64,000 nucleotides of DNA from an uncultured Sphaerochaeta sp. (GTDB taxonomy: Bacteria; Spirochaetota; Spirochaetia; Sphaerochaetales; Sphaerochaetaceae). Below are positions 17,975 to 50,769 of this stretch, one piece after another. Position 1 is the first letter of the stretch; each line of letters opens with the position of its first letter. Under the pieces are notes generated by a model. The model did not search any database. It was not told the DNA's origin and was given only the letters and a program-made list of their open reading frames with translations. The DNA is taken from contig OZ223274.1 in assembly GCA_965140595.1 (NCBI GenBank), forward strand, positions 1,806,856 to 1,870,855, in the 5' to 3' direction. The position numbers and the translations under genes were made by a program.

Positions 17975-18131
17975 AGTAGCCCCCTTATCCTTCTATCATC
18001 CGGTATAACCATCTTTTTGTAAAGTTTTCTCTAATCGCCCCAACGGGTGAGTTTGATATGATCCTCTTTAGGTAGACAAATCATCTTTGAGGGCGATATC
18101 TGACAGAAGGTCAGAGTCTTATCATAAGAAC

Positions 18132-22674: not shown

Positions 22675-22728
22675 ATCCTACCATTGAAGGGGCGAGTGTG
22701 GTAGAATCCTCTTCAGGAGGATCGGATA

Positions 22729-23688
22729 GTGTTCATCATCGGAGACATTCTGCTTTTTCTGACTACCGCACTCGTATTTTCCATTACCTGTCTGTGTATC
22801 CTCTTGCATATACGGGCAAAAGACAGTTTTACACGTGGGTTCTTGGATTTTCTGATACCTCTGTGCCTTCAGATGTTCCTGACCATGCTCTATGCATACA
22901 TACCCCGAGTCTATCCTCCTGAACTGCTTACAGGTAATATCTATAGGTATTTCTGTCTTTCAGCAACGCTGGTATCCATATTCCTTACAACTCTGATGCT
23001 TTTTACCATGAGTCGCTACCTTCTGTCCCTGTTGCCTGCAACAGAGAAGGAGAAAAGTCGGGGGAAGACCATCCTAGGCTTTCTCATCCTTACGTTCCTT
23101 ATCCTCAGTCTGCTTATCATCATCGGAAAGAGCGAAGGGGACTGGATATATGCGATGGACCTTACCTTCTCCTATCACCTCTTCAGTGGTAGCGTGTTCT
23201 TGATTATCCATGGCTTCATTTCGCTCTTCTATCGTAAGAAGGCGCAAGGATGGGAACAGGAGAGGCTTCTTACAGGAATCTGCATAACCTTCATTCCCTT
23301 GCTGGTGCTTTTTCCCCTTGACCTGATCTTTTTCTGGAACCATGCCTTCAAGTTCACCTATCTCAGCTTTGCGGCTTTCGCAGTCTACCTCTACTATTTC
23401 ATCAATCGTAGATACTTCCTTACCTATGAAGCGGTAACTGAGGCTTCCGTCACCTTACAAACTGAGTTCTTGGAAGAGCATGAGGTATCGAATCGGGAGA
23501 GAGAAATCATAGCCCTGCTGGTCAAAGGTCTGAGTAACCGTGAGATTGCAGAGAAGCTCTTCATCTCCCCCAACACAGTTAAGACCCATATCAAGAATAT
23601 CTATGCAAAGCTGGGGGTCTCCAATAGGGTGTTGCTTTTCTCTCTATTGCAAAAGAATCAAAGTCCTAACTCTTGTTTACAGCGCTGA
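22729..23688 (+). CDS. Membrane-anchored LuxR-family transcriptional regulator (about 8 TM plus a C-terminal HTH)
   Basis: It has a GTG start after a CAGGAGG RBS and the C-terminal LuxR HTH motif (REIAEKLFISPNTVKTHIKNIYAKLGV). Confidence 0.65.
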   Translation: MFIIGDILLFLTTALVFSITCLCILLHIRAKDSFTRGFLDFLIPLCLQMFLTMLYAYIPRVYPPELLTGNIYRYFCLSATLVSIFLTTLMLFTMSRYLLSLLPATEKEKSRGKTILGFLILTFLILSLLIIIGKSEGDWIYAMDLTFSYHLFSGSVFLIIHGFISLFYRKKAQGWEQERLLTGICITFIPLLVLFPLDLIFFWNHAFKFTYLSFAAFAVYLYYFINRRYFLTYEAVTEASVTLQTEFLEEHEVSNREREIIALLVKGLSNREIAEKLFISPNTVKTHIKNIYAKLGVSNRVLLFSLLQKNQSPNSCLQR

Positions 23689-24047
23689 CAGATACCTGTG
23701 AGATAGAAGGTATGGTCATTGACCCTGAAGCCATGCTCCGCTTCCAATTGACGAACGTACCCTGCATAAATACACCCACCCAAATCTATGAAACAATGAC
23801 AATGCTCACAATGAAACCAATGATGGTGATCATTCCCCTCCTTGGCAGAATAGTAACGTTCAGTTCCATGTTCACTGCAGTGTAGGATAAACGAGGTTGC
23901 CAGGTTGTTCTTCTCGAGGTAGTGTAGGTTTCTGTACACTGTCGCAGGGTCACAGAAGTCACTGAGCTGCTTAGCAAGCTCAGAAGCAGAGATAGGCTCT
24001 CTTGCATTCTCCAAAGCCAAGAAGATTGTTTTTCTAGCCTTTGTCAT
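23658..24047 (-). CDS. zur: Fur-family metalloregulator, probably Zur
   Basis: The start is at ATG 24047 (MTKARK) with an AGGAGGAGG RBS. It has the Fur fold with H/C metal sites (HHHWFHCEHCH, CQRC). It sits next to znuBCA. Confidence 0.7.
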   Translation of the reverse strand: MTKARKTIFLALENAREPISASELAKQLSDFCDPATVYRNLHYLEKNNLATSFILHCSEHGTERYYSAKEGNDHHHWFHCEHCHCFIDLGGCIYAGYVRQLEAEHGFRVNDHTFYLTGICQRCKQELGL

Positions 24048-24918
24048 TACGCAAAGTCCTCCTCCTGCTATAGGTGAAAAGCATCTTTGTAGCGGCAGTT
24101 CCAAGGAATACTCCTCCGGCAATGACGACCACCATCGCACCGACAGGGACATCAAGCATCCACCCGGCGGCCAATCCCCCAAAGGAAAAGAGTGCAGAAA
24201 ATAATGTGCCCAACCCCATCATGGCGGCAAGGTTCTTCGCCCAGTATCCGGCTGTCCCTGCAGGTAGGGTCAGCATTGCTATAACCATTACAATACCTAC
24301 AAAAGTCTGCAATAGGACCACTGCTACCGCTGTGATAGTGAGCATCAACAGGAACACTCGTTGGGTCGGTATTCCTCGCACTTGGGCAAACTCCTCATCA
24401 AAAGAGGTTGCTTCGATCTGGGGGTAGAAGCGCCAGGCAAGAAGGATTACCACCACATCGAGGGCAAGTAAAAGAATCAGATCCTTATTTGAAATTAACA
24501 GGATGTTTCCAAACAGATAGGAAGAAGGGTCTGTATAGCCAGGGGTTTTGGCCATGAAGAGGACACCAATACTCATACCAATGGCCCAGATTGCCTGTAT
24601 GACCGTGTCCTCACGTTGCTTCGCCTTCAGTGATACCACCCCAATGATAGCCGCAGCTATGATAGCAAAGACAATAGCCCCCATCATGGGAGTTATTCCA
24701 GGTACCTTCCCCGTTGCAGATAAGTAGAGTGCAATGCCAATACCACCCAGAACTGCGTGTGATATGGCTCCAGCAAGGCCTGCGATCCGTTTGACAGTAA
24801 CCACCGCTCCTATAACCCCAAATAGAATCGAAGAGAGCAGACCAGCAAACAAGGCATTTCTGACAAAGGGGAAGGCAGGATTTGCAAGGGCGCCAAAAAA
24901 ACCTGAGAGGTTATCCAT
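24034..24918 (-). CDS. znuB: Metal ABC transporter permease (ZnuB/ABC-3 family)
   Basis: The start is at ATG 24918 after a GGAGGGG RBS. The protein is polytopic. Confidence 0.75.
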   Translation of the reverse strand: MDNLSGFFGALANPAFPFVRNALFAGLLSSILFGVIGAVVTVKRIAGLAGAISHAVLGGIGIALYLSATGKVPGITPMMGAIVFAIIAAAIIGVVSLKAKQREDTVIQAIWAIGMSIGVLFMAKTPGYTDPSSYLFGNILLISNKDLILLLALDVVVILLAWRFYPQIEATSFDEEFAQVRGIPTQRVFLLMLTITAVAVVLLQTFVGIVMVIAMLTLPAGTAGYWAKNLAAMMGLGTLFSALFSFGGLAAGWMLDVPVGAMVVVIAGGVFLGTAATKMLFTYSRRRTLRNDKG

Positions 24919-25705
24919 TGTTTTCCCCTCCATCGAAGGTACAGTAATCAGCAGGAAGCTCAACATCATGAAGAACCCGTAAGGCTTCTCCTCCATACAG
25001 TTCTGAAGCATGCTGCATCGGCTCGGTGGTATGCTGGACAACGGTGCGGCCCTTCTGTCCAGGTTTTTGAGCCCCGATACAGAAGACCCTGTCAGTAAGT
25101 GAGGAGACAGTGCTCATATCATGGGTGACTATGAGGATGGTGGTCCTGCCCTTGAAGTTCCTGAGCGTATCGAAAAGACGTCTCTCACTTTCAGCATCCA
25201 TATTCGCTGTAGGTTCATCTAGGATGAGCATCTTAGGACCTGCGACGAGAGCACGTGCAACAAGAACTCGTCTTCGCTGCCCTCCTGATAGCTCGCTATA
25301 GGGTCTTTGCGCCAACTCTTCCATCTCTACCTGTTTGAGAGCCTGTAATGCAGCCCCATTTCTCTCTTCCCTGCTCTTTCTTGAAGTCGAGAGTACCCCG
25401 CCCATCCTTACAACCTCCACTACAGAGATTGGAAATGTCGGGTCGTAGGTCATATGCTGAGGCACATACCCTATCATGGATCTATTCTTTCTAGGCTGGT
25501 CTCCAAATAGCAGGACCTCTCCTTGCTGGCTCTGTTCGAGACCAAGGATAAGCTTGAGAAGGGTGGTCTTGCCAGAACCGTTGGGTCCGACCAGAGCGCT
25601 GAACTCCCCTTCATGGATATGGAAGTTTACATCCTCCAGGACGGGCAACATGTCATAGGAGAAGGCTACATCAGAAAAGCGCAGCGCGATAGGGGCTGGG
25701 CTCAT
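24911..25705 (-). CDS. znuC: Metal ABC transporter ATP-binding protein (ZnuC-like)
   Basis: It has Walker A GPNGSGKTT, the signature LSGGQRRRV and Walker B LILDEP. Confidence 0.8.
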   Translation of the reverse strand: MSPAPIALRFSDVAFSYDMLPVLEDVNFHIHEGEFSALVGPNGSGKTTLLKLILGLEQSQQGEVLLFGDQPRKNRSMIGYVPQHMTYDPTFPISVVEVVRMGGVLSTSRKSREERNGAALQALKQVEMEELAQRPYSELSGGQRRRVLVARALVAGPKMLILDEPTANMDAESERRLFDTLRNFKGRTTILIVTHDMSTVSSLTDRVFCIGAQKPGQKGRTVVQHTTEPMQHASELYGGEALRVLHDVELPADYCTFDGGENNG

Positions 25706-26625
25706 TGGCTCTTTCCTACAGTACTCAGAAGAACATCACCCATTGCCCGGATATTCTCCATCCAATCTCGAGCAAGAGGATTGAGGGCAAGGACCTTAGT
25801 CCCTGTCGCCTTTGCAACAGTCTCTGCAGATGCGAGGGGAAACTGTTTTTGGACAAAAAGGGCCACTGCCTTCTCGCTCTTAGCTTTTTGGATAAGAAGG
25901 GAGAGATCTTTGGCTGTAGGTTCCTTTCCCCCTATCTCAACAGCTTCTTGGATCAAGGAGAACTCATCGAAAAAGTATCCGAATGCAGGATGATAGACAA
26001 ACACCTTTCGTCCAGCTAAGGGGGCAAGTTTCTCCTTGAGGGTGAGGAAGGTTGTATCAATATCTGTTATAAGTTGTTGGTAGTTGGCTTCCAACAAGGT
26101 TTTCTGTTCTGGAAGCAGCAGTATGGTTGTTTCCAGGACATGCCCAGCCAAAATTTTTGCACTTTCCCAGCCAAGCCAGGTATGACGGTCACGCTTGAGA
26201 CTGTCTTCCTCAATTGCATGCGTTTCTTGCTCTTCATGATCATGAGCTTCCATGAACCTGAAGGTTACCCCTTCTGTCCCATCAATCACCAGGAGATTGG
26301 GATAGAGAGAGGAAACTTTGTCCTCAAGGACGAGCTCAAAGTCGGTGCCACTGAGTATCCAAGCCTTTGCCTGGGCTAAAAGGGCCATTTGAGAAGGAGT
26401 CGGCTCATAGGAGTGGGGACTCTGCCCCTCTCCAACCAACACCACACTGTTGACAAGGTCTCCCGCTATACGCTGGACAAAGTATTCTTGAGGCAAAATG
26501 CTCAGAGCCAGAGTTGGCTTACCCTCAGGATTTTGCTCTTCAGCTTTGCCTTGGGAAAACAGAAGTCCTGTCGCAAGAACCAGGAGTATCACTATGCTAT
26601 ATAGTATTCGGTTGTTCTTTCTCAT
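25702..26625 (-). CDS. znuA: Metal ABC substrate-binding lipoprotein (ZnuA/TroA family) with a His/acidic-rich loop
   Basis: It has a signal peptide and an HDHEEQETHAIEED loop typical of Zn-specific ZnuA. The RBS is AAGGAGG. Confidence 0.75.
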   Translation of the reverse strand: MRKNNRILYSIVILLVLATGLLFSQGKAEEQNPEGKPTLALSILPQEYFVQRIAGDLVNSVVLVGEGQSPHSYEPTPSQMALLAQAKAWILSGTDFELVLEDKVSSLYPNLLVIDGTEGVTFRFMEAHDHEEQETHAIEEDSLKRDRHTWLGWESAKILAGHVLETTILLLPEQKTLLEANYQQLITDIDTTFLTLKEKLAPLAGRKVFVYHPAFGYFFDEFSLIQEAVEIGGKEPTAKDLSLLIQKAKSEKAVALFVQKQFPLASAETVAKATGTKVLALNPLARDWMENIRAMGDVLLSTVGKSQ

Positions 26626-26781: not shown

Positions 26782-27294
26782 ATGATCTTGAACTTCAAAG
26801 AAAAACAACCTCACATTGATCCATCTTGCTTTATCGCACCCTCTGCAGACGTCATTGGAGAGGTCGTGATTGGCAAAGCCTCCTCACTATGGTTCAACGC
26901 CACAGTAAGGGGTGATGTCTCCTCCATCCATATCGGTGAAGGGAGCAACATCCAAGACAATACGGTGGTTCATTGTACTATCGATGTACCGGTTTCAATC
27001 GGAGACAGCGTAACCATTGGACATGGGGCGATACTACACTCCTGTTCCATTGGAGACGGATGTCTTATCGGTATGGGTTCAACCATCTTAGATGGAGCGG
27101 TCCTAGCTGAGGAGACACTTGTAGGAGCAGCTTCCTTGATACCTCCGGGCAAGACGTATCCCCCAAAGAGCTTGGTCATGGGATCTCCTGCCAAATTCAT
27201 ACGAGCTTTGACTGAAATTGAGCTTCAGGATATGAGAGAGAATGCCAGACAGTATCAGAGGGCATCGGCAGAGTATATTGCCGAGCTCTCCTAG
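26782..27294 (+). CDS. Gamma-class carbonic anhydrase family / hexapeptide-repeat protein
   Basis: It has a left-handed beta-helix hexapeptide repeat pattern (IGEGSNIQDN, IGDSVTIGHG). Confidence 0.75.
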   Translation: MILNFKEKQPHIDPSCFIAPSADVIGEVVIGKASSLWFNATVRGDVSSIHIGEGSNIQDNTVVHCTIDVPVSIGDSVTIGHGAILHSCSIGDGCLIGMGSTILDGAVLAEETLVGAASLIPPGKTYPPKSLVMGSPAKFIRALTEIELQDMRENARQYQRASAEYIAELS

Positions 27295-27962
27295 ACCATG
27301 TTTGCCTTCTCAAATTTCTTAATGGCTTCGTTGGTTCCCCCTACCACCAAGATATCCTCAGTCTGCAAGACCAGTTCTGGGGTGATCTCACTGATTGCCT
27401 TATCGTTTCTAAGCACTACGATGATATTCAGGTGGTACTTCTTGCGAATATTCAACGCCTCGATCGTCTGATCGACAAAGCTCTCTGAAATGGGAATATT
27501 GGCTATGGAAAAATCATCACACAGCTCAAGGAAATCGAGAGTGCCAGTAGCGATGAGCGAGTGGGCAAGACGGGCTCCCATATCAACTTCAGGATAAATG
27601 GCTTCTGCCCCAATCTTCTCCAGAACCCTGCCATGGTCAACGCTGCTTGCCTTTGCTATGACTCGGGGAATCTTCAACTCCAAGGCATTCATCGTTGCAA
27701 GAATATTTGACTCAAGGTCCTTACCAATGCAGACAATGACCGTACCGCAATGGGCAACCCCAGACTCTTTCAGCACATCCTGGGTAATTCCCGTTACGGG
27801 ATAAATGTTTGCAAGCTGGTCCTTGACCGCATCGAGCTTTTCTTCCTCGATCTCCAACACAATTACATCCTTGCCCGCCTTGGTCAGTTCCAAGGCAAGG
27901 GAAAGTCCGAATTTCCCAAGTCCAATGATACCATAGGCATCCAGATCAAAGTCACTTTTCAT
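27291..27962 (-). CDS. ktrA: Potassium uptake regulatory subunit, TrkA/KtrA (RCK N and C domains)
   Basis: It has the Rossmann motif GIIGLGKFG and is 223 aa. Confidence 0.75.
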   Translation of the reverse strand: MKSDFDLDAYGIIGLGKFGLSLALELTKAGKDVIVLEIEEEKLDAVKDQLANIYPVTGITQDVLKESGVAHCGTVIVCIGKDLESNILATMNALELKIPRVIAKASSVDHGRVLEKIGAEAIYPEVDMGARLAHSLIATGTLDFLELCDDFSIANIPISESFVDQTIEALNIRKKYHLNIIVVLRNDKAISEITPELVLQTEDILVVGGTNEAIKKFEKANMV

Positions 27963-27978
27963 AGTACACGCTCCTTAA

Positions 27979-29304
27979 TCATCCAATGAACACCTTCTCC
28001 TCAACATACTTGAGTACTGATTGTTTACCCCTGATGCTGGTTGCAATCGTGATGGGTCCAACTCTTCCGATGAACATAACTGCAATAAGAACAAATTTCG
28101 ATGCTGTATGCAAGTGTGGGGTAATACCTGTCGAAAGGCCTACGGTTGCAAAAGCTGAGACGCTCTCAAAGGCAACCTGTAAAAAAGTAAAGCTGTTCTT
28201 TTCTATCAAGAGTAGAGCCGTAACACCAAATCCAAGCACCATTGAGGCCAGCAACAATACCTGAAATGCCTTGAGGATACTCATCTCATCAATTTTTCTT
28301 TTAAAAGCTGAAGGCTCTCTTCTGCTGATCATAGAGCCAAGGCTCAGCAGCAGAGCAAAGGCAGTAGTAGTCTTTATTCCACCTCCTGTAGAACCAGGGG
28401 AGGCTCCAATAAACATCAGGCTCATCATAATGAACTGTCCTACATAACTCATGGAACCAATATCTATGGTATTGAAGCCTGCAGTCCTTGCACTGGTACT
28501 TTGGAAGAAGGCACTCAACAATGAGGTTTTCTCGATGAAAAAGAAAACCAAAGTCCCCAATAGCAGTAGGCTTGTATTCATGAGCAGTACAATCTTACTG
28601 TGTAAGGAAAGGCGTTTCCAACTACGGGCCCTAGCAAGGTCTGCCAACACGAAAAAACCTGTTCCCCCGATGATGATCAAGGCCGAAGTGACCAGATTCA
28701 TGGACAAACTGTTCTTGTAGGCTGTCAGGCTTTGGTACCCGCCTTGGATATCAAAGCCTGCATTGTTGAATGCAGAGATAGTATTGAAGGCCGCGTGGCC
28801 TAAGGCCTGAAGGGGTGCATGAGTATCCTTGAATATGAAGAACTCAATAAGGATACCTAAAGATTGAAATATCAATGAGGCAAGACCAACAGTTTTCACT
28901 ACCTGCATCGTGCCTTTCACTGTTCCCAGATTATAGGCTTCCTTGATGACACTGTACTTGCCTATGGATATAGAGCCGCTGAACATCAGGATAAAAACCA
29001 TGACAGCCGAAGCAAAACCTAACCCCCCAAGCAAAATGAGTAGCGTAATGACAACTCTGCCAAAAAGGGAGAAGGTAGCAGCAACATCGATAGTGACCAG
29101 GCCTGTCACACATACAGCACTTGCAGAGGTAAAGAGTGCATCTATATAGCTGAGGTCCACTCCATTGTTCTGTGCGAAGGGAAGAGAAAGAAGAATCGAC
29201 CCTACTCCAATAATGAGCAAAAACCCCAGTAATAGATATTGATTAGGCAACAGGGCCTTGTGTTTGATTGCACTCATAGTTGAATTTGAGTCTACCATCA
29301 GCAC
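27979..29304 (-). CDS. ktrB: TrkH/KtrB family potassium transporter
   Basis: 441 aa and polytopic with TrkH-type repeats. It lies upstream of ktrA in the same operon. Confidence 0.75.
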   Translation of the reverse strand: MLMVDSNSTMSAIKHKALLPNQYLLLGFLLIIGVGSILLSLPFAQNNGVDLSYIDALFTSASAVCVTGLVTIDVAATFSLFGRVVITLLILLGGLGFASAVMVFILMFSGSISIGKYSVIKEAYNLGTVKGTMQVVKTVGLASLIFQSLGILIEFFIFKDTHAPLQALGHAAFNTISAFNNAGFDIQGGYQSLTAYKNSLSMNLVTSALIIIGGTGFFVLADLARARSWKRLSLHSKIVLLMNTSLLLLGTLVFFFIEKTSLLSAFFQSTSARTAGFNTIDIGSMSYVGQFIMMSLMFIGASPGSTGGGIKTTTAFALLLSLGSMISRREPSAFKRKIDEMSILKAFQVLLLASMVLGFGVTALLLIEKNSFTFLQVAFESVSAFATVGLSTGITPHLHTASKFVLIAVMFIGRVGPITIATSIRGKQSVLKYVEEKVFIG

Positions 29305-29414
29305 AAATCTAACACAATACGTAAAGCAATAGGGTCCCTATCATTTGCCGACAAACACATTTGATGCTATATTGAAGTATAACTGGAACTTATCCAGACA
29401 AAGTGAGGAAAGAC

Positions 29415-29927
29415 ATGATTGATAAAAAAATAGTGACTCTGCTGAACGAACAGATAAACAAAGAGTTCTTCTCTGCCTATCTCTATCTAGATATGGCAAA
29501 TTATTACGCACACAAAAACCTTCTGGGCTATGAAAACTGGTTCAAGGTACAAGCTCAGGAAGAGATGGCTCACGCCCTGCTCTTTAGGCAGTACCTCTTG
29601 AACAATGGCTATGCCGTCGAGTTTTCTACCATTGGAGACCCCACCAAGAAGTATGAGGACAACAAAGCTCCCCTGCTTGAAGCTTTGAAGCATGAAGAGT
29701 ACGTTACTGCTTCCATAAACACTATCTATGAACAAGCGGTACTTCTCAAGGACTACAGGACACTGCAATTCCTGGACTGGTTTGTTAAGGAACAGGGAGA
29801 AGAGGAAATGAATGCACAGGATAATATCCAGAAATATGAACTCTTCGGATCTGATCCCAAAAGCCTCTATATGCTCGATAAGGAGCTGCTATTGCGAGTC
29901 TTTGTTGCCCCTTCCCTGATAATCTAG
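29415..29927 (+). CDS. Ferritin (non-haem, ferritin-like diiron)
   Basis: ATG 29415 is preferred after a GAGGAAA RBS; the GTG ORF starts at 29403. It has ferritin ferroxidase ligand spacing (E..EE.AH). Confidence 0.75.
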   Translation: MIDKKIVTLLNEQINKEFFSAYLYLDMANYYAHKNLLGYENWFKVQAQEEMAHALLFRQYLLNNGYAVEFSTIGDPTKKYEDNKAPLLEALKHEEYVTASINTIYEQAVLLKDYRTLQFLDWFVKEQGEEEMNAQDNIQKYELFGSDPKSLYMLDKELLLRVFVAPSLII

Positions 29928-30873: not shown

Positions 30874-30906
30874 ATCTCTCTTCATGATGAAGAGAGATTT
30901 CTTTAT
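30874..30906 (+). terminator. Terminator hairpin after pirin (ATCTCTCTTCAT / ATGAAGAGAGAT followed by TTCTTTAT); a second 16-bp perfect palindrome follows at 30925..30959
   Basis: Inverted repeats were seen in the sequence. Confidence 0.5.
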
Positions 30907-30982
30907 GCCAAGCTTACCATAGGGCATCATGCTCCTTTTCTGAAAAAGGAGCATGATGTGAAAGTTTGGATGAATGAATTTC

Positions 30983-31016
30983 TTGACATTGTACTAATGA
31001 ACCCGTACAATAGTAC
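30983..31016 (+). promoter_or_regulatory. Sigma70-type promoter (TTGACA-17-TACAAT) overlapped by three GTAC motifs (GTACTAATGAACCCGTACAATAGTAC), a GntR-type operator candidate
   Basis: Consensus hexamers with a 17-nt spacer were seen. GntR operators follow GT-N-AC. Coordinates are plus or minus 1 nt. Confidence 0.5.
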
Positions 31017-31032
31017 AAGAAAGGAAAACCAA

Positions 31033-31452
31033 GTGAAACCAGCAGGCGAAAGCAGACTTGAATTCAGTTTAGATATGAAGAGCGGAGTCCCATTCTACAA
31101 GCAGATCATCTTCCAAGTGGAGATGGCCATCGCTGATGGAAGATTAGAGAAAGGCGCTCAGTTGCCCACAGTCAGAAGCCTTGCTGTAGACTTGAGTATC
31201 AATCCCAATACGGTAGCCCGTGCTTATGCCGAGATGGAAATCCGCAACATCGTTGTCACCCAGCAGGGTTCAGGAACCTTCATCAGCGACAAGAAAGTCA
31301 ATCTCAATGCAATAGAACGCGAACAGGTGCTTACGCAGATTACCAAGGTCTATCTCACCAAGGCAGCATCCTTTGGATTCTCCCTGGAAGAGATTTTTGC
31401 AAATATCAATGATTTGGGCTCTGAATTGAAGCGAAAAAAGGAAACAGTATGA
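31033..31452 (+). CDS. GntR-family transcriptional regulator, YtrA-like (short wHTH)
   Basis: The start is at GTG 31033 after an AAGGAAA RBS and downstream of the promoter. The ATG at 30958 lies upstream of the -10. It has the HTH motif LPTVRSLAVDLSINPNTVARAY. Confidence 0.65.
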   Translation: MKPAGESRLEFSLDMKSGVPFYKQIIFQVEMAIADGRLEKGAQLPTVRSLAVDLSINPNTVARAYAEMEIRNIVVTQQGSGTFISDKKVNLNAIEREQVLTQITKVYLTKAASFGFSLEEIFANINDLGSELKRKKETV

Positions 31453-32552
31453 ATTTTTACCAGAAGAAGTTTGACAGGATCAAGAACATCAAGACATTCA
31501 GCCTCAAGAAGGACTTCAATTTTGGAGCAATCTCCTTCTTTTCTTTAGCGAGCTTTATGGGCGTCGGTGCATGGGTACAGTTGCTTATCTTCCCATCCTT
31601 TCCCTTGGAGGGCATTATCCTACTTGTCTCTTTCGTTTTGGTGATGGCCCTCATCACCGCACTTCTGCCGATGTGGCTTACTACCATTGCCTTGCTCCTA
31701 ATCATGTGGATATCAGTAATGGGACAGCTATCCCCCTACCTCTACCCTCTTGCAATCTTTGCAACGGTGGGCATTCTCCTATCAAGTGGCATCCAGCTGA
31801 TACAACACTGGGACAAGGTCGTTGTCCTGCGCCTTGGAAAATTCAAGAAGGTACATGGGACAGGTCTCTTTTTCCTCATTCCCATGGTAGACAGGATTGC
31901 TGAGTTTGTAGACATGCGCATTAGGGCGACAGATTTCAGTGCGGAGAAGACGCTCACCAAGGACACCGTCCCAGTTCATGTCGACGCTCTCGCATTCTGG
32001 ATGATCTGGGATGCCAAGAAGGCCATCCTAGAGGTAGAAAACTACACTGAGGCGGTAATCCTTTCTGCACAAACAGCCCTTCGAGACTCCATTGGGAAAT
32101 ATAAGTTGTCTTCACTGCTTTCCGAACGGGAAGAGTTGGGCAGGGAAATCCAGCAGTCACTCGATGCAAAAACCAACCCATGGGGAGTAACCATCCTCTC
32201 GGTAGAGATTACTGACATCATCATCCCCAAGGAGCTGGAAAACTCCCTAAGCAAACAGGCTCAGGCAGAGAGGGAAAAAGAATCAAGAATCATTCTAGGG
32301 GCTGCTGAAGTGGAAATTGCCAAGAAGTTCACCGAAGCATCAAAAGAATATGCAAATGACCCAGTGGCCTTACAACTTCGTTCCATGAACATGATCTATG
32401 AAGGCATCAGGCAGAACAACTCAATGATGCTCTTGCCGGCTTCCATCCTCGACCATATGGATTTGGGAGCAGTATTGGGAAGTGCTGCCATACAGAAAAC
32501 CCAAGAATCCAATAATTCACAGCAACCTAAAACACAACCCATTGAGGAGTAG
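31449..32552 (+). CDS. SPFH/band-7 (stomatin/HflC-like) membrane protein
   Basis: It has N-terminal TM helices and an SPFH domain with a coiled-coil tail (QAQAEREKESR). Confidence 0.7.
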   Translation: MNFYQKKFDRIKNIKTFSLKKDFNFGAISFFSLASFMGVGAWVQLLIFPSFPLEGIILLVSFVLVMALITALLPMWLTTIALLLIMWISVMGQLSPYLYPLAIFATVGILLSSGIQLIQHWDKVVVLRLGKFKKVHGTGLFFLIPMVDRIAEFVDMRIRATDFSAEKTLTKDTVPVHVDALAFWMIWDAKKAILEVENYTEAVILSAQTALRDSIGKYKLSSLLSEREELGREIQQSLDAKTNPWGVTILSVEITDIIIPKELENSLSKQAQAEREKESRIILGAAEVEIAKKFTEASKEYANDPVALQLRSMNMIYEGIRQNNSMMLLPASILDHMDLGAVLGSAAIQKTQESNNSQQPKTQPIEE

Positions 32553-32555
32553 ATC

Positions 32556-33239
32556 ATGATCAGGATAGAAAACGTTTCCCGTAACTACAAAACAGGAGAG
32601 ACTGTCGTTAAGGCACTAAAAAAAGTATCTCTTGATATTGCCGATGGGGAATTCCTCTCCATTGCTGGTCCTTCAGGGTCAGGGAAGACCACATTGCTCA
32701 ATCTTATCGGTTGTATCGATGCCTTGGACGAAGGGGAGATTACCATCAATGGGGAAAAAGTTACCACAATGGGGAAAAAGGGTATGACCGAGTTCCGCAG
32801 GAACAACCTCGGTTTTGTATTCCAGACCTACAATCTCATCCCTGTTCTCTCTGCCTATGAAAATGTTGCCTTCGTGCTCTCAATCCTCAATATCGGTGAA
32901 GAGGAGACAAAAAAACGCACTATGGCCATCCTCAAAGAGGTCGGACTGGAAGGAATGGAAAACCGCCGTCCTGGCAAACTCAGCGGAGGACAGCAACAAC
33001 GAGTCGCCATTGCCAGAGCCCTGATCAAGAACCCCCAGATTGTCCTAGCAGACGAACCGACAGCAAACCTCGATTCAAAGACAGGTGAAGGAATCCTCCG
33101 TCTCATGAAAAACATGAACGAGAAGTACAAGACCACTTTCATTTTTTCAACCCATGACCAGATGGTCATGGACTACGCCTCCCGTCTGGTTCTTCTCCAT
33201 GATGGAACCATCATCAGCGATGAAAGGAGGAATGGATGA
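32556..33239 (+). CDS. ABC transporter ATP-binding protein, MacB/LolD-like
   Basis: It has Walker [10 protein letters not shown], the signature [15 protein letters not shown] and Walker B VLADEPT. Confidence 0.85.
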
Positions 33240-34495
33240 AATTCATCTTCACCCTCGCGATGAAGAATCTGGCCCGATATAAAAGGCGTACTGCCATCAC
33301 TGCAATCGCCATTGCATTTGGCCTGATGATGTACCTTATTGTCGATTCCATGCTCCTGGGAGTCGAACAGGAATCGGTGCGTAACCTGATCTGGTACGAA
33401 ACATCATCGGTGAGAATACATCAGAAGGATTACTGGCCTGACAGACTGCTCTTCCCCTTGGAAGAGGGAATTGAAAATCCCGAGAAGGTCATCGACATCC
33501 TCAAGAAAGATGGCTATACAGCAACCGAACGTACCCTGTTCAAGGCTGATATGATCCTCTATAGCGATGACTTTGGGGAAGAAGGAAACCTGTCAGTAAT
33601 GGTAACAGGCATCGACTCCGAGACGGACAACCAGGTCTTTCACTTTGAAGACACCCTTGTTGAAGGGAGGCTACTCAACAAAGGCGAAAAGGATGGCATC
33701 CTCATGGGATCCTGGCTTGCTGAAGACATAGGGGCAAAGGTCGGGTACTGGGTCACCCTGGTCACCAGGGGAAACGGAGGCTTTTTTGAAGCAATCGATG
33801 TCCAGATTGTAGGTATCGTCAACTGCCCCAACCCCAATGTGAACCGCACACTCATCATGATGGACAAGGATACTGCTGGCACTGTCTTAGGTATGGATGG
33901 AGCAGTTACTGAGATAGATATCCTGCTGCCTAACCGCTCTGATGTCGACGTTGAGGTTATAAGAATACAGGCGAGCCTTGATTCTCATGGCTTTAATGAC
34001 CTTGAGGCAAGGAGCTGGAGAGAATTGGCCAAAGACTACCTGGCAATAACCGAGGCAAAGCGTGGGGGGACAGGAATAATCCTCTTTCTGGTATTCATTA
34101 TCGCTGCTGTGGGCATATCAAACACCATGCTTATGGCAATGTACGAACGTACACGCGAGCTAGGTATGATGAGAGCCCTAGGTATGAAGGACAACGATAT
34201 TCGCCTTTCGTTCATCATTGAAGCGGGTGGCATAGGTCTGGTTGGATCGCTTGTGGGGATAGCCATGGGAGCGCTTGTAAACATCTACATAGCCAACGTA
34301 GGTATCGATTTTGGGTTCCTAATGCGTGATATGGACATTGGCTATAGAATCCAAAGCATTATGCGAGGGACATGGAGCTTTAAGTCGTTTGTCATGACAT
34401 TCGTCTCAGGTATCACCCTTTCCATGATTGTATCGATCATCCCCATCAGGCGCTCACTCAAGATGGATATCCCTTCTTGCCTCAGACACCAATAG
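33236..34495 (+). CDS. ABC transporter permease, FtsX/MacB-type (4 TM plus a periplasmic domain)
   Basis: It has the FtsX topology and conserved C-terminus. It is a paralog of 37623..38876. Confidence 0.8.
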   Translation: MKFIFTLAMKNLARYKRRTAITAIAIAFGLMMYLIVDSMLLGVEQESVRNLIWYETSSVRIHQKDYWPDRLLFPLEEGIENPEKVIDILKKDGYTATERTLFKADMILYSDDFGEEGNLSVMVTGIDSETDNQVFHFEDTLVEGRLLNKGEKDGILMGSWLAEDIGAKVGYWVTLVTRGNGGFFEAIDVQIVGIVNCPNPNVNRTLIMMDKDTAGTVLGMDGAVTEIDILLPNRSDVDVEVIRIQASLDSHGFNDLEARSWRELAKDYLAITEAKRGGTGIILFLVFIIAAVGISNTMLMAMYERTRELGMMRALGMKDNDIRLSFIIEAGGIGLVGSLVGIAMGALVNIYIANVGIDFGFLMRDMDIGYRIQSIMRGTWSFKSFVMTFVSGITLSMIVSIIPIRRSLKMDIPSCLRHQ

Positions 34496-34507
34496 GAGAA
34501 TGCAACG

Positions 34508-35743
34508 ATGATGACAAACCTTCCGAAACTAGCTTTCCGGAACATATTCAGGAATCTGAGGCGTTCAATCCTCTCAGCTGTTGCCATTGCAGTATCAGCG
34601 ATGAGCATCGTCATGCTCTTCGGTCTGCTCGATGGTATGGAAACTGACATGGCCAACAACCTCAAATCCTACTATACGGGACAGATACGTATACAGAACG
34701 CTGATTTTGAGAAGTATGAACGCTACAACCCTCTGCATCTTGGAGTCGACTGGACAAACATTGAGCCCATCCTGGCAAAAAACAACAATGTGCGTGCTGC
34801 AACGCCAAGAATCAACTTCCCTGCAAATATGTACCTAGGGGAGAAAACCCATGCGATCATGGGTGTCGGTGTGGATTTCACCAAAGAGGAGGCCTTCATT
34901 GACTTTCCCTCCTTGGTCAAAGAAGGCAGACTGCCTGAAACAGGGAAGAACGAGATTCTGATGGGCTTTGCACTCGCAAATGACATGCATCTCACCCTCG
35001 GGGACAAGGTAACGTTGTTGAGCACTACTGCAACAAGAGGAAGCAATGCCTTCACATTCCAGATTGTAGGTATCGCAGGCTTCCCTGTCGCCAGCCTCAA
35101 TGCAAACACGGTTTGGGCACCGATAGACCGGATCCAGAGGTTTCTCGGCATGGATGGAATCACCCAGGAGATTCTGATAATGCTTGAAAATGGAACAGAT
35201 GAGAAACTAGTGGCAACCCAAATAGATAATGAAATCGAGAGAACATTGGGTATTCCAACCGACACCCGTTCCTGGAGAGACCTTAACAAATTATACAGTA
35301 TGTTCATGATAGCCAAGGTCGCATACTATTTCATCGCCATGTTCTTTTTTGTTCTGGGTAGTACGGTCATCATCAACACAACCATGATGGTCATCTTTGA
35401 GAGGATGCGCGAGATCGGGACACTCTCTGCTTTAGGGATGCAAGGGTCCGAACTGACCAGACTTTTTCTGCTTGAAGGCTTCTTCATCAGTGTCATCGGC
35501 TCGTTTGTCGGTGCCCTGATCGGATTCATCGGCACCTACTATATGGGCAAAGTAGGACTAGACTTCACAGAAGCCTTCAGTGGTATCGATATAGAAATTT
35601 CCTCTATCCTTTATCCTGAGACAAACATAGTGAAAGCCATTATTATCTGGGCCTATGCTGTAGTCATATCCACCTTGTCAACATTCATCCCTTCTCGTCA
35701 CGCTTCAAAAATTCAACCTGTGGAGGCTTTACGTTATGTATAA
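34508..35743 (+). CDS. ABC transporter permease, FtsX/MacB-type (second, divergent permease)
   Basis: It has the FtsX topology (MacB_PCD plus FtsX). Confidence 0.8.
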   Translation: MMTNLPKLAFRNIFRNLRRSILSAVAIAVSAMSIVMLFGLLDGMETDMANNLKSYYTGQIRIQNADFEKYERYNPLHLGVDWTNIEPILAKNNNVRAATPRINFPANMYLGEKTHAIMGVGVDFTKEEAFIDFPSLVKEGRLPETGKNEILMGFALANDMHLTLGDKVTLLSTTATRGSNAFTFQIVGIAGFPVASLNANTVWAPIDRIQRFLGMDGITQEILIMLENGTDEKLVATQIDNEIERTLGIPTDTRSWRDLNKLYSMFMIAKVAYYFIAMFFFVLGSTVIINTTMMVIFERMREIGTLSALGMQGSELTRLFLLEGFFISVIGSFVGALIGFIGTYYMGKVGLDFTEAFSGIDIEISSILYPETNIVKAIIIWAYAVVISTLSTFIPSRHASKIQPVEALRYV

Positions 35744-36482
35744 AAAACTACCTACCCTACTTCTTGCAATTCTGCTGTTGCTGATTGTTCCCTCTGCTCT
35801 ATTCGCCCTTAGTGCCGAAGAAATCATAGGAAGAATGGACAGCATGGCAACCTTCGACACCACCTTCTCCACAGGATCCATCCAGACAACAGACCGTTTT
35901 GGAACAAAAACCAGCCTCTTCAAATCATGGAGTCAGGGAAAAAACGACTCGCTGATCGAGTTCACCAGCAAGGCTGAACGCGGACAGAAGGTCCTCCGTA
36001 CTGAGGGGAGTCTCTATCTCTTTTACCCTGATGCAGAGCAGATCATCCGGATGCAAGGAGCGGCCCTACGTCAAGCCATGTTAGGATCGGACATTTCCTA
36101 TGAGGACATGACCGAGGAAAAAAACACCCTGGACAACTACACGGCCAAGCTTGAAGGTTTGGAAACCTTCAAAGGGAGGGAGTGCCATGTACTGACCCTT
36201 ACAGCCAAAACAAGGACTGTGGCCTACCCGATCCAGAAGATCTGGGTCGACACAGAGTCATTCCTGACATGGAAGGGCGAGTACTCCACCCAAGCAGGAA
36301 GGCTTCTCAAGGAGATGGAGGTATTGGAAACCTTCAAATCAGGGGACAGGGTACTTCCGAAGCAGACCAAGATTGCAGACAAGATGAAGAAAGACTCTTC
36401 CACTCTCATGACGATAGATACATTTGAAGCAAACCCAACGCTGGACAGAAGCATCTTTACCTTGGAGAACCTCACATGGTAA
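35736..36482 (+). CDS. Outer membrane lipoprotein-sorting (LolA-like) periplasmic protein
   Basis: It has a signal peptide and the GSDISYEDM motif (compare GSDFSYADM at 20594). Confidence 0.55.
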   Translation: MYKKLPTLLLAILLLLIVPSALFALSAEEIIGRMDSMATFDTTFSTGSIQTTDRFGTKTSLFKSWSQGKNDSLIEFTSKAERGQKVLRTEGSLYLFYPDAEQIIRMQGAALRQAMLGSDISYEDMTEEKNTLDNYTAKLEGLETFKGRECHVLTLTAKTRTVAYPIQKIWVDTESFLTWKGEYSTQAGRLLKEMEVLETFKSGDRVLPKQTKIADKMKKDSSTLMTIDTFEANPTLDRSIFTLENLTW

Positions 36483-37609
36483 GCAGGACCAAGAAACATA
36501 AAATTCCCTTCATTTGCTTTTGTTTGCTGGCCCTGTCTTCACTAGGGGCAGCAGAAAATCCTGTGATAAGCATGAACCTGTTGCCAACAGTGGCCTACAA
36601 GGCAAATGACGATAGCTGGTCTGAATTCATGCTTGCAGACCTTTCCCTCTCCCTCTCTTCCAAGCGAGAAGGGAATGTCCGAGGGGAAGTTGTGCTGAAA
36701 GGCAACTCCCTTGAAACTCCCTCTACCTTTGATGATGTGCTGTATAAGGCATACTTTAAAGCCCGCTTTCCCTCCTTCCGCCTTACAGCGGGTAAAACAC
36801 GACTCTCTTGGGGTGATGGCATGCTTTTCAATGCAGGTGATGTGCTGTATGGAAGCAACTCCACCTCGGTCTCCCTGACCCAGGCGGAGCTGAGAAGCAC
36901 TACGAATTGGCTGGCCTCAATCAACTATCCCTTGGGATTCTTCTCATTTGCAGAAGCTGTGGTGATGCCCTCTGACACTCATAACCCCACAGAGATGCTA
37001 TTCGGAGCTAGATATTATACCACCGTCAAAGATGTAAAGGTCGAGATAGGATATGCTACCAACACTCCAGAAACCACAACAGTACGTCTGCATAAACCCT
37101 ATCTGAGCCTGCAGGGCAATCTCGGCATTGACTGGTACCTCTCCTCCTCGGTAGCTATCCCGGTAGCTGGAGATATAGCACAGGAAAGCGGTGAGTCCTG
37201 GATGATAAGTGCAGGGATTTTCCACCTAGTCACCCTACCTTTTGACATGTCGCTCACCCTTAGACTGGAACTTCTTGCCAGGCCTTTCGGCATATGGGAA
37301 ACAGGTCCAGTCACAGACGGGACAGCAGCAATCTTGCTCTATCCTGAACTTGGTTTTACCTATTCACCTTCACTGTCATTCAGTCTTCGCTCGATTATTT
37401 CGCCCTTGGATATTTCTGCCAAGAGTATCCTTGGCATGAGTTGGAATATCTTTGATGCTTTCAACCTCATAAGCAATATCGCCCTAGTTACTGGTGATGA
37501 GGGGGATCTGTTCGCCTGGACCACAACTGATCCTACAAACCCAACTTCTTCCGACCCTACAAAACCAGCTTCCTTCTCTGTAACAATTGGCAGCAGCTGG
37601 GTTTTCTAA
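36476..37609 (+). CDS. Predicted outer-membrane beta-barrel protein
   Basis: It has a signal peptide, a beta-rich sequence and a C-terminal ..SSWVF. Its start overlaps the upstream stop. Confidence 0.45.
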   Translation: MVSRTKKHKIPFICFCLLALSSLGAAENPVISMNLLPTVAYKANDDSWSEFMLADLSLSLSSKREGNVRGEVVLKGNSLETPSTFDDVLYKAYFKARFPSFRLTAGKTRLSWGDGMLFNAGDVLYGSNSTSVSLTQAELRSTTNWLASINYPLGFFSFAEAVVMPSDTHNPTEMLFGARYYTTVKDVKVEIGYATNTPETTTVRLHKPYLSLQGNLGIDWYLSSSVAIPVAGDIAQESGESWMISAGIFHLVTLPFDMSLTLRLELLARPFGIWETGPVTDGTAAILLYPELGFTYSPSLSFSLRSIISPLDISAKSILGMSWNIFDAFNLISNIALVTGDEGDLFAWTTTDPTNPTSSDPTKPASFSVTIGSSWVF

Positions 37610-37622
37610 CAAGGAGATATCT

Positions 37623-38876
37623 TTGAGATTTGCTTTCCTCCTAGCAATGAAGAACCTCTCTCGTTACAAGAGGCGAACCTTCATCACAGCCGTAGCCATT
37701 GCCTTTGGTCTTGCGATGTATATCATAGTTGACTCCTTGATATTGGGAATGGAACAGGAGTCCATACGCAACCTACTCTGGTATGAGACCTCTTCGATAA
37801 GGATTCATACACCACAGTACTGGCCAGATCATCAGCTCTATCCTTTGGAACAGGGGATACAGAAGCCAGAAAACATACTGAAGATTCTCAAGGATGAAGG
37901 TTGGACAGCAACAGGGCGTACCATGTTTACAGGTGATATGATCCTCTATAGCGATGACTTTGGAGAAGACGGGAACATGAGCGTCCTGGTCACTGCCATT
38001 GACCCTGAAACTGATAATGACGTATTCCATTTTGAGGACACCCTTATCGACGGCAGACTCCTCAACATCAATGATGTGGAGGGGATTCTCATGGGATCGT
38101 GGTTTGCTCAGGATATCGGTGCAAAGGTCGGCTACTGGATAACCATAGTCACCCGAGGCAATGGAGGGTTCTTTGGAGCCATTGACTTACAGATTGTAGG
38201 AATCGTCAACTGTCCCAATCCCAATGTAAACAGAACTCTCCTTATGATGAACAAGAATAGTGCAGACACTCTGTTAGGCATGGAGGGATCAGTGACAGAA
38301 ATCGATGTCAGACTACCCCTACAAGCTGATGTTGATGTGGCTGTTGAAAGATTGCAAAAGACCCTGAATACTGATTTTGACCTTGAGGCAAGAAACTGGA
38401 AAGCCCTAGCCAAGGATTACCTCTCAGCATTGGAAGCAGATAAAGGAGGCTCAGCCATAATCCTCTTTCTGGTCTTCATCATAGCTGCAGTGGGAATATC
38501 CAATACGATGCTCATGTCCATGTATGAACGGACACGGGAATTGGGGATGATGAGAGCTTTGGGAATGAAAGACAGTCATATCCTTCTCTCCTTCTTGTTT
38601 GAAGCTGGAGGCATCGGATTTGTAGGATCTGTCATCGGCCTTGTATTGGGGGCTTTGGGTAATCTCTATATGGTCAATGTAGGCATTGATTTTGGGTTTG
38701 TCATGCGCGATATGGATATTGGCTATAGGATTCAAAGTATTATGCGCGGCACTTGGAATCTCCGATCTTTCTCCCTGGCAGCGGCTTCTGGAATCATCCT
38801 CTCGATGATTGTTGCCTGGCTTCCTATCAGACGTTCCCTAAAAATGGATATTCCTTCTTGCTTACGTCACCAATAG
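37623..38876 (+). CDS. ABC transporter permease, FtsX-type (duplicate of 33236..34495, about 75% identical)
   Basis: The TTG start at 37623 follows an AAGGAGA RBS and gives the N-terminus LRFAFLLAMKNL, parallel to [12 protein letters not shown] in the paralog. Confidence 0.75.
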   Translation: MRFAFLLAMKNLSRYKRRTFITAVAIAFGLAMYIIVDSLILGMEQESIRNLLWYETSSIRIHTPQYWPDHQLYPLEQGIQKPENILKILKDEGWTATGRTMFTGDMILYSDDFGEDGNMSVLVTAIDPETDNDVFHFEDTLIDGRLLNINDVEGILMGSWFAQDIGAKVGYWITIVTRGNGGFFGAIDLQIVGIVNCPNPNVNRTLLMMNKNSADTLLGMEGSVTEIDVRLPLQADVDVAVERLQKTLNTDFDLEARNWKALAKDYLSALEADKGGSAIILFLVFIIAAVGISNTMLMSMYERTRELGMMRALGMKDSHILLSFLFEAGGIGFVGSVIGLVLGALGNLYMVNVGIDFGFVMRDMDIGYRIQSIMRGTWNLRSFSLAAASGIILSMIVAWLPIRRSLKMDIPSCLRHQ

Positions 38877-38941: not shown

Positions 38942-39685
38942 ATGGAATTTATAACCCTTACCCCAGAGAACTTAGAGCAAGAACACATCTGCTGTGCAAT
39001 TGCCGATAAAAAACACCAACGGGGAGTTGAAGAAAAAAAAGCTTGGCTTGCAGAAAGGCTTACAGAAGGACACATATTCAGGAAACTGAATACCCGGGGT
39101 AAGGTTTTCATCGAGTATACCCCACTAGAAAATGCATGGGTACCTGTCATAGGTGACAACTTTCTCTATATACACTGTCTCTGGGTTTCCGGCAGTTTCA
39201 AAGGCAAGGGATATGCACAAGAGTTGTTGGCCTCATGTATTGCCGATGCCAAAGAGCAAAAACGATCGGGAGTATGTGTAATCAGTGCAAAGAAAAAGAA
39301 ACCCTTTTTGAGCGACAAGGCCTTTATGATCAAGCATGGCTTTGAAACAGTCGATCATATTGGAAAAGAATATGAGCTCTTGGCCTTTTCTTTTGATGGA
39401 ACCAAGCCTCAGTTTGCAGAATCGGCAAGAGAACAAAGCATAGCGAACCAGGACTTGACCATCTATTACGGATTGCAATGTCCGTACATCCCCAATTGCC
39501 TTCATGAAGTTCAAGCTTACTGCGAAGCCAATGGGGTTACGGTAAATTTGGTGAAGGTTGATACCCTGCAAAAGGCAAAAGCCATGCCCTGTGTATTCAA
39601 CAACTGGGCAGTGTTCTATCACGGGAAGTTTGAAACAGTGCATCTGCTAAACGAAGGCTATCTCAAGAAAAAGCTTGGTATATGA
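38942..39685 (+). CDS. GNAT N-acetyltransferase with a YoaP-like C-terminal domain
   Basis: It has an N-terminal GNAT core and a C-terminal YoaP-type extension (IYYGLQCPY..C). Confidence 0.55.
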   Translation: MEFITLTPENLEQEHICCAIADKKHQRGVEEKKAWLAERLTEGHIFRKLNTRGKVFIEYTPLENAWVPVIGDNFLYIHCLWVSGSFKGKGYAQELLASCIADAKEQKRSGVCVISAKKKKPFLSDKAFMIKHGFETVDHIGKEYELLAFSFDGTKPQFAESAREQSIANQDLTIYYGLQCPYIPNCLHEVQAYCEANGVTVNLVKVDTLQKAKAMPCVFNNWAVFYHGKFETVHLLNEGYLKKKLGI

Positions 39686-50717: not shown

Positions 50718-50769
50718 GTGTATCTCACTATTCTACAATTAATTGCATATTTGTTCACTATCCTTAGGA

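Follow-up and report, generated by a model that had tools for sequence, protein, structure and literature searches.

Introduction

Among the described systems closest to the one considered here, YbbAP-TesA extracts hydrophobic compounds out of the inner membrane (PMC12646458), and AmeABCD joins a resistance-nodulation-division (RND) transporter to a LolA-superfamily (DUF1329) protein and a DUF1302 barrel in monoterpene tolerance (PMC6394551). Two further relatives belong to family PF17131. LolA3 of Porphyromonas gingivalis (PGN0947, PDB 9TP6) occurs beside a canonical LolA and a LolB, to which it does not bind, and carries neither the LolA signature Arg nor the LolB signature Leu; its function was concluded to be separate from that of LolA (PMC13103446). 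TP0789 of Treponema pallidum, the namesake of the family, adjoins the RND-type pump TP0790 (PMC8407342). The subject of this report is an operon at positions 31033-38876 of a 64-kb window, by which we mean the whole stretch of 64,000 nucleotides that was analysed (uncultured Sphaerochaeta sp., assembly GCA_965140595.1, contig OZ223274.1, positions 1,806,856-1,870,855). It places a PF17131 carrier between an ATP-binding cassette (ABC) transporter and an outer-membrane barrel, behind a GntR regulator and an SPFH protein.

We propose, with a probability of about 0.55, that this operon encodes a self-contained, repressor-controlled and inducible accessory Lol-like shuttle for hydrophobic cargo, and not the Lol pathway proper. 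The proposal draws on the make-up of the transporter, the kinship of the carrier, the predicted fold of the barrel, the conservation of the gene order among Spirochaetia and the control region that precedes the operon.

Results

Gene order and gene limits

Open reading frame (ORF) calls and Pfam searches recognized eight co-directional genes on the + strand of 31033-38876. The first-pass annotation of this DNA had counted nine; the eight that it listed, with their order and named families, agree with our calls. The operon and its control region comprise the following features.

30983-31011, + strand: sigma-70-type promoter, TTGACA-17 nt-TACAAT, 11 of 12 consensus matches
30989-31018, unstranded: candidate operator, inverted repeat TTGTACTA-N14-TAGTACAA, overlapping the -35 and -10 elements
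31033-31452, + strand: GntR regulator, YtrA subfamily, 139 aa, GTG start (PF00392, 2.4e-14)
31449-32552, + strand: SPFH/Band-7 membrane protein, 367 aa (PF01145, 1.8e-36, 126.3 bits against a gathering threshold of 23.6)
32556-33239, + strand: ABC ATPase, the single nucleotide-binding subunit of the operon, 227 aa (PF00005, 6.7e-36)
33236-34495, + strand: permease A, type VII (FtsX/MacB-type), 419 aa (PF02687, 3.5e-19)
34508-35743, + strand: permease B, type VII, 411 aa (PF12704, MacB_PCD, and PF02687, FtsX)
35736-36482, + strand: periplasmic carrier, PF17131 LolA_like (TP_0789/LolA3-type), 248 aa (3.2e-46, 157.7 bits against a gathering threshold of 30)
36476-37609, + strand: orphan outer-membrane beta-barrel of ~18 strands, 377 aa, signal peptide, C-terminal Phe
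37623-38876, + strand: permease A', a lineage-specific extra copy of A (FtsX and MacB_PCD), longest ORF from 37587

The genes are all co-directional, as first described. Their seven junctions comprise four overlaps (4, 4, 8 and 7 nt, the ATGA start of the SPFH gene overlapping the GntR stop) and three gaps (3, 12 and ~13 nt), so that an overlap of 1-8 nt at every junction does not hold. Two gene starts deserved closer inspection. The GTG start at 31033 is supported because the promoter-like site at 30983-31011 falls within the longer ORF beginning at 30958 and a ribosome-binding site, AAAGGAAAA (31020-31028), precedes the GTG. On the other hand, the sequence from the barrel stop to the A' start reads TAA-caAGGAGatatct-TTG, and the true start of permease A' is therefore most likely the TTG at 37623, with an AGGAG ribosome-binding site in front and 13 nt past the barrel stop, rather than the start of the longest ORF at 37587.

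ABC ATPase and permeases

The operon has one ATPase gene and two different permeases, A and B, which are only 31% identical, the arrangement that had been likened to LolD/LolC/LolE in the first-pass annotation. Each of the three permeases is laid out as in type VII transporters, with a first transmembrane segment, a periplasmic domain of ~230-240 aa and then transmembrane segments 2 to 4 (Pfam, hydropathy), and this four-segment FtsX domain with a large periplasmic domain, together with an ATPase of the MacB/LolD/FtsE class, identifies a type VII ABC transporter of the MacB/FtsX superfamily. Permease A' is 72% identical to A, in keeping with the extra duplicated permease previously reported.

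As for the nearest relatives, the PDB matches of permease A are led by LolF (1.5e-10), followed by YtrF (4.5e-10), MacB (1e-8) and then LolC/LolE, and those of permease B by LolF (5.8e-15), followed by LolE (1e-13), YtrF, LolC (3.8e-12) and then MacB (8.8e-8), the similarity to YtrF being confined to the FtsX transmembrane domain. The best PDB match of the ATPase is MJ0796, within a ranking that does not separate LolD, MacB and BceA. Clustering with MacB-type efflux or antimicrobial-peptide resistance systems, which would speak against a Lol-like system, was looked for and not seen, the closest solved relatives of the permeases being LolF, LolE and LolC. Membership in the Lol pathway proper fails at the level of equivalogs: the permeases score 99.6 (A), 136.5 (B) and 102.8 bits (A') against the lolCE model TIGR02212, whose cut-off is 362 bits, and the ATPase scores 223.1 bits against the LolD model TIGR02211 (cut-off 307.75), which equals its score against the unrelated model of DarD, the darobactin exporter; the region of the LolC Hook is, in addition, six residues shorter. 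Judged by these comparisons, the complex has a LolCD2E layout and stands closer to permeases of the Lol kind than to MacB, without being a LolCDE orthologue.

Periplasmic carrier and outer-membrane barrel

Directly after the permeases the PF17131 match (3.2e-46) bears out the LolA-like protein seen at first pass. A cleavable signal peptide is present in the carrier, and cysteine, that of a lipobox included, is absent throughout, so that the protein should be soluble in the periplasm. Its sequence matches in the PDB are 3buu, 9tp6, 4z48 and 3bk5, and comparison of the predicted fold shows it to be structurally LolA3/DUF1329-type, not LolA. Canonical LolA (PF03548) was not matched, so that of the two relationships proposed for comparison, with authentic LolA and with the LolA_like family, the second one holds. 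The carrier is a member of a distinct branch of the LolA superfamily (PF17131/LolA3).

The product of the next gene yields a confident AlphaFold2 model (predicted local distance difference test, pLDDT, 85; predicted template modelling score, pTM, 0.77) of a closed barrel with 18 strands, and with its signal peptide and aromatic C-terminus (...SSWVF) it has the marks of an outer-membrane beta-barrel, as had been predicted. Neither the protein nor its family profile has a Pfam, NCBIfam or meaningful PDB sequence match. When the profile was searched against 1.84 billion representative proteins, only 369 relatives came up, and these stay under every Pfam threshold even at 25-32% identity. Homologues of the barrel with a named source belong to Sphaerochaeta and further Spirochaetia. 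The family is small and had not been described before, and its most conserved element is the loop R-L-T-A-G-K-T-R-L-S-W-G-D-G-x-x-F-N-A-G-D. Three known families were considered and set aside: Wzi (PF14052; 14.1 against 30.1 bits, with hits under the threshold for 15 of 31 and for 5 of 34 proteins of the barrel family), DUF1302 (PF06980; E 0.097, below threshold) and Omp85, to which Borrelia BBJ25 belongs and whose 16-strand barrel with POTRA domains is not what the model displays.

Conservation of the operon and duplication of permease A

An alignment of the carrier was used to scan 185,579 species genomes; relatives were found in 231 of them, and the best 80 were taken as loci and annotated by BLASTP with the window proteins. 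Every one of these 80 belongs to the Spirochaetota (Sphaerochaeta, Pleomorphochaeta, Oceanispirochaeta, Thalassospirochaeta and Sediminispirochaeta). The core of seven genes, GntR-SPFH-ATPase-A-B-carrier-barrel, is syntenic in ~80 Spirochaetia species, and the same order appears in the annotated contigs of Sphaerochaeta pleomorpha Grapes and of a 4.3-Mb Spirochaetia assembly; because it recurs in so many species genomes, the arrangement is far beyond chance. The barrel gene lies 3' of the carrier gene in every locus with room for it, at times with only 27-33% identity. What flanks the operon (TrkH/TrkA, ferritin, pirin, Fe-S proteins) varies with the lineage.

An extra permease is present in 19 of the 48 complete loci and is always of the A-type, permease B never being duplicated. 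It occupies four positions: after the barrel, as in the clade of the window, before GntR, in the SPFH/ATPase gap or in the carrier/barrel gap. Since in a neighbour-joining tree the extra permease of each clade falls together with permease A of that clade, this distribution implies at least five independent duplications of A, or repeated gene conversion. Thus, A may be the variable, possibly cargo-selecting subunit of the complex, and B the constant one. In the 4.3-Mb Spirochaetia genome (L003, the same locus as L065) a 395-aa ORF with no Pfam match (10170-11357) lies directly 3' of the barrel on the same strand, in the place of the extra permease in the window's clade.

Promoter, regulator and SPFH protein

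The promoter lies ~20 nt 5' of the GntR start and downstream of both the pirin stop codon and two perfect hairpins (30874-30898, with a 12-bp stem, and 30925-30958, with a 15-bp stem and a 4-nt loop), which are probably terminators insulating the operon from pirin transcription. The inverted repeat that overlaps it occurs once in the 64-kb window, with 0 occurrences expected by chance. Its half-sites, TTGTAYTA / TARTACAA, are present in at least two copies just 5' of the GntR gene in 56 of 59 related loci, usually spaced 14 nt start to start. In S. pleomorpha and one other locus (L060) a second copy of the half-sites stands before the separately placed extra permease, which for this reason would belong to the same regulon.

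Regulators of the YtrA subfamily lack an effector-binding domain and typically control ABC exporters. The GntR protein conforms to this type, with an N-terminal winged helix, a very short C-terminal part and the palindrome at its own promoter; its homologues are 134 aa long, and its best NCBIfam matches are the short YtrA-type Rv1152 and PmtR models (120-125 positions), both below their equivalog cut-offs. The adjoining SPFH protein, which falls below the HflK/HflC equivalog level (69 versus 159 bits), has four N-terminal hydrophobic segments with Lys/Arg-rich stretches before the first and after the last, and by the positive-inside rule its SPFH domain would be cytoplasmic. SPFH and GntR genes are found together in 52 of the 57 loci with enough upstream sequence and are both missing from the other five, a pattern compatible with a role of the SPFH protein in sensing or regulation; four of these five have a TetR-family regulator directly 5' of the ATPase. 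In the first-pass annotation the SPFH protein had been suggested to organise the complex in membrane microdomains, and its joint gain and loss with the regulator is the one observation here that bears on this possible role. The conserved GntR repressor over its own promoter, exchangeable for TetR, points to conditional expression, and the conserved operator argues, indirectly, against constitutive expression. Because the YtrA-type repressor is conserved and can be swapped for TetR, a conditional accessory system is to be preferred to housekeeping lipoprotein sorting.

Parallel MMPL module and related clusters on plasmids

The first-pass annotation had noticed a second set of engine, LolA-like protein and barrel in the window, driven by protons instead of ATP. 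This module is separate from the operon.

18087-23688, + strand: MMPL module, with an MMPL transporter, a second PF17131 carrier, an orphan barrel and a LuxR/GerE regulator

Its proteins match their families clearly (MMPL, 835 aa, 4.4e-36; LolA_like, 254 aa, 3e-55; GerE, 3.5e-20). The barrel of 438 aa, with a signal peptide and a C-terminal Phe, has 58 homologues, those with a named source all from Sphaerochaeta/Sphaerochaetaceae. The claim of two parallel systems is upheld for the MMPL, LolA_like and barrel genes at 18087-22674, and the module is the proton-driven counterpart of the ABC operon. Homology of the two barrels is not demonstrable, the hhalign probabilities being 3.9% and 3.5% with only a short 'aG..r..WG.G' motif aligned, and was discarded.

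PF17131 is also found with an ABC ATPase, FtsX and an unannotated protein of 380-480 aa on plasmids of Aliiroseovarius (L085, 4581-11206) and Burkholderia thailandensis (L086, 6908-12009). A two-component system comes next in the Aliiroseovarius cluster, and in the Burkholderia cluster both permease halves are fused in one 832-aa protein. The Burkholderia protein that follows PF17131-ABC-FtsX has a similar loop motif, is near-threshold for DUF1302 and aligns with our barrel profile (hhalign probability 71%, E 3.8e-5), and so a link of the barrel to DUF1302 through this ABC-associated barrel is suggestive only. The 480-aa protein 3' of the Aliiroseovarius carrier has no similarity to the barrel profile, and no Borrelia plasmid record was retrieved at E <= 1e-3 by tblastn of the window carrier against plasmids.

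Neighbouring genes

A GNAT/YoaP-like acetyltransferase gene (38942-39685) begins on the same strand 65 nt past permease A', with no terminator-like site between them. A gene of this kind is likewise found 3' of the extra permease in three other loci (L012, L014 and L015), whereas S. pleomorpha has none. The acetyltransferase gene may be transcribed together with the operon and lies outside the conserved unit. Just 5' of the operon, at 24034-26625 (- strand) and 27291-29927, are genes of metal/ion homeostasis, namely those of a ZnuABC-type transporter, of TrkA/TrkH and of ferritin. The TrkH/TrkA and ferritin genes, like pirin, adjoin the operon in many Sphaerochaeta genomes, not in other genera. 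Lnt, which had been brought into connection with the operon, is indeed encoded at 58830-60509. It is 20 kb away, on the minus strand and among unrelated housekeeping genes (CinA, Rho, SurE), so that the proposed linkage does not stand and Lnt was rejected as a part of the system. ORFs with no Pfam match at E <= 1e-4 are found elsewhere in the window at 53749-54984 (- strand, 411 aa), 15406-16416 (+ strand, 336 aa) and 50743-51438 (+ strand, 231 aa).

Discussion

If the operon is the inducible accessory shuttle proposed here, the YtrA-type GntR repressor would sit on the palindrome over its own promoter and keep the operon off until a signal relieves it. Two copies of the single ATPase would then power an A+B (or A'+B) heterodimer, a LolCD2E-like type VII extractor, which would pull its cargo, a hydrophobic or lipid-anchored molecule, out of the inner membrane at the outer leaflet and pass it to the soluble PF17131 carrier of the LolA3/TP_0789 type. 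The carrier would cross the periplasm to the dedicated 18-strand barrel, and there the cargo would be inserted into, or released through, the outer membrane. The outward direction is suggested by analogy with known type VII ABC transporters; we infer the physical hand-off steps between components, and the SPFH protein would have a regulatory or sensing role. The individual steps of such a mechanism have precedents in LolCDE-LolA, YbbAP-TesA, AmeABCD and, as a computational proposal, Borrelia BBJ23-29.

A number of observations weigh against this proposal and must be set beside it. Transport direction is not readable from sequence, and the nearest fold neighbours of the barrel, whose model matches 18-strand channels, are the uptake channels OccD (OccD3), chitoporin and maltoporin. 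Both A- and B-type permeases have a six-residue deletion at, and no similarity to, the Hook of LolC (E. coli residues 167-179) in a MAFFT alignment with E. coli LolC/LolE that is of limited reliability at ~20% identity, and hence docking of the carrier, if any, would not be LolC-like. In the carrier, conservation is highest over residues 97-128 (window 36038-36119; YPDA...LGSDISYEDMT), which are also modelled with the lowest confidence (pLDDT <50). The motif GSD[IF]SY[EA]DM within this stretch recurs in the MMPL-linked PF17131 paralogue, where it adjoins the DUF1329-matching residues 74-118, and could be a docking or lid element. The joint loss of SPFH and GntR corresponds to about two independent events, and their adjacency alone could explain it. 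No further gene family, and thus no cargo or biosynthesis gene (lipid, glycan, lipoprotein), is co-conserved in the flanks of the ~80 loci, and our literature search found neither a characterised system of ABC transporter, PF17131 carrier and barrel nor a study of Lol genes in Sphaerochaeta.

Taking the ABC operon and the MMPL module together, it is tempting to speculate on a broader scheme, in which a PF17131 carrier and a barrel form a general pair for outer-membrane delivery that can be joined to an ATP-driven ABC engine or to a proton-driven MMPL/RND engine, and in which, in the ABC version, SPFH and the effector-less YtrA repressor constitute a membrane-state sensor and the duplicated permease A sets cargo specificity. 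Taken as a whole, we regard this scheme as unlikely. If true, the carrier-barrel pair would represent a third broad periplasmic route for hydrophobic molecules beside Lol and Lpt.

Several other functions could be assigned to the same genes. They might be the housekeeping Lol pathway of Sphaerochaetaceae, with A and B as LolC and LolE, the ATPase as LolD, the carrier as a divergent LolA and the barrel replacing LolB as acceptor. The LolCD2E layout of one ATPase and two dissimilar permeases would suit this view, as would the position of LolF, LolE and LolC as the nearest solved relatives of the permeases, the presence of Lnt, from which the organism can be taken to make triacylated lipoproteins, and the lack of LolB in spirochetes (PMC11326224). 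We nevertheless consider it very unlikely, given that the lolCE and LolD scores are far under the equivalog cut-offs, that both permeases are shorter at the Hook, that the carrier is of the LolA3/DUF1329 type, whose P. gingivalis member coexists with canonical LolA and does not bind LolB (PMC13103446), and that canonical LolA homologues have been reported from diverse environmental spirochetes (PMC11326224). A repressor operator, or a TetR gene, in front of an essential constitutive system would be unusual, and relatives in just 231 of 185,579 species genomes are few for a system of this kind. A MacB-type pump for efflux or antimicrobial-peptide resistance, expelling toxic amphiphiles by means of a carrier and a barrel in place of MacA and TolC, is quite unlikely: the permeases rank MacB below the Lol permeases among their matches, and a carrier that is soluble and has a lipid-binding fold implies that cargo is shuttled and not led through a continuous duct. 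It is true that the permeases carry MacB_PCD and FtsX domains, that GntR/YtrA or TetR control is typical of efflux and stress operons, and that the analogous RND cassette AmeABCD provides solvent tolerance and Nile-red efflux (PMC6394551). No membrane-fusion adaptor (HlyD/MacA) and no TolC-like protein is found in the operon or in the ~80 loci, however, and with neither adaptor nor duct, and with a barrel that is 18-stranded and porin-like, a MacAB-TolC-type pump in the strict sense was excluded.

In the Mla system, too, an ABC complex is combined with a soluble lipid carrier and with an outer-membrane component that is associated with a porin. This system offers a parallel for transport in the opposite sense, in which a hydrophobic nutrient or a mislocalised lipid would come in through the barrel and be brought by the carrier to the ABC complex, either for Mla-like retrograde transport or for uptake. 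The type VII ABC transporters (LolCDE, MacB, YbbAP) have no transmembrane substrate path and are not known to import. This feature of the transporter class, and the lack of a catabolic gene in the conserved unit, make inward transport doubtful, despite the best fold matches of the barrel being substrate-specific uptake channels (OccD3, chitoporin, maltoporin) and the poor growth on fatty esters of DUF1302/DUF1329 mutants of Pseudomonas putida (bioRxiv 10.1101/2020.07.04.188060). It is still harder to see in the operon a device for mechanotransmission or signalling like FtsEX or Bacillus subtilis YtrEF, which would move a periplasmic partner during envelope stress. The YtrA-type regulator at the head of the operon, the place of YtrF among the top PDB matches through its transmembrane region and an SPFH protein that suggests a tie to membrane state have brought us to consider it; a partner with a lipid-carrier fold and an invariable barrel are foreign to FtsEX and YtrEF, the likeness to YtrF does not reach beyond the FtsX transmembrane domain, and we hold this function to be extremely improbable.

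The accessory shuttle that we favour bears on the annotation of PF17131 at large. Members of this family are labelled 'outer membrane lipoprotein-sorting protein' in many diderm phyla, pathogens included (TP0789, B. burgdorferi BBJ28, LolA3), and the 'lipoprotein-sorting' label could mislead. The solved LolA3 is unlike LolA in its behaviour. The operon family described here offers a clean setting in which to establish the role of PF17131, with the carrier between a Lol-like extractor and a barrel and with a defined promoter and operator, and natural variants with one or two A-type permeases or with swapped regulators are useful to this end. Sphaerochaeta is culturable, and the identity of the cargo would bear on the supply of lipids and lipoproteins to the outer membrane in spirochetes that lack LolB.

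Comparison with known systems

LolCDE-LolA shares with the operon a single ATPase gene, two dissimilar type VII permeases and a LolA-superfamily carrier directly downstream, and its members, with LolF, are the nearest solved relatives of the operon permeases. The operon differs from it in scores under the LolCE and LolD cut-offs, a PF17131/LolA3 carrier, a shorter Hook region, an 18-strand barrel where the Lol pathway has the lipoprotein LolB, and the presence of repressor control and SPFH. MacAB-TolC resembles it in the MacB_PCD and FtsX make-up of the permease and in the class of the ATPase, whereas the operon has no MacA or TolC, encodes its ATPase in a separate gene and combines a heterodimeric permease with a soluble carrier. 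The B. subtilis operon ytrGABCDEF (YtrEF, PDB 9O9X) is likewise a type VII ABC operon headed by a short YtrA-type repressor, and YtrF is a top match of the permeases, but it serves a cell with a single membrane, has no carrier and no barrel, and is similar in the FtsX transmembrane domain alone.

Another related system is the cluster BBJ23-BBJ29 on lp38 of Borrelia burgdorferi, also from a spirochete and proposed, on purely computational grounds, to export a non-polar ligand; unlike the operon, it has a homodimeric permease, an Omp85/TamA-like barrel and TPR proteins in place of GntR and SPFH (PMC13078400). LolA3 and TP0789 share PF17131 with our carrier, TP0789 standing beside an RND pump whereas the operon carrier stands between an ABC transporter and a barrel. 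The AmeABCD and related DUF1302-DUF1329-RND (HAE3) cassettes correspond to the operon in that an engine in the inner membrane is joined to a periplasmic protein of the LolA superfamily and to a dedicated barrel, under inducible control (PMC6394551; bioRxiv 10.1101/2020.07.04.188060), and the motif of the operon barrel resembles that of DUF1302, below threshold only. Their engine, in contrast, is a proton-driven RND/MMPL protein, their barrels are true DUF1302 proteins of ~600 aa, and they include a BNR/COG4447 protein that is absent here. The MMPL module of the window is similar to the P. putida genes for DUF1302/DUF1329 proteins that are under LuxR regulation (bioRxiv 10.1101/2020.07.04.188060), and its layout mirrors that of the LuxR-regulated DUF1302/DUF1329/RND cassettes of Pseudomonas and Castellaniella.

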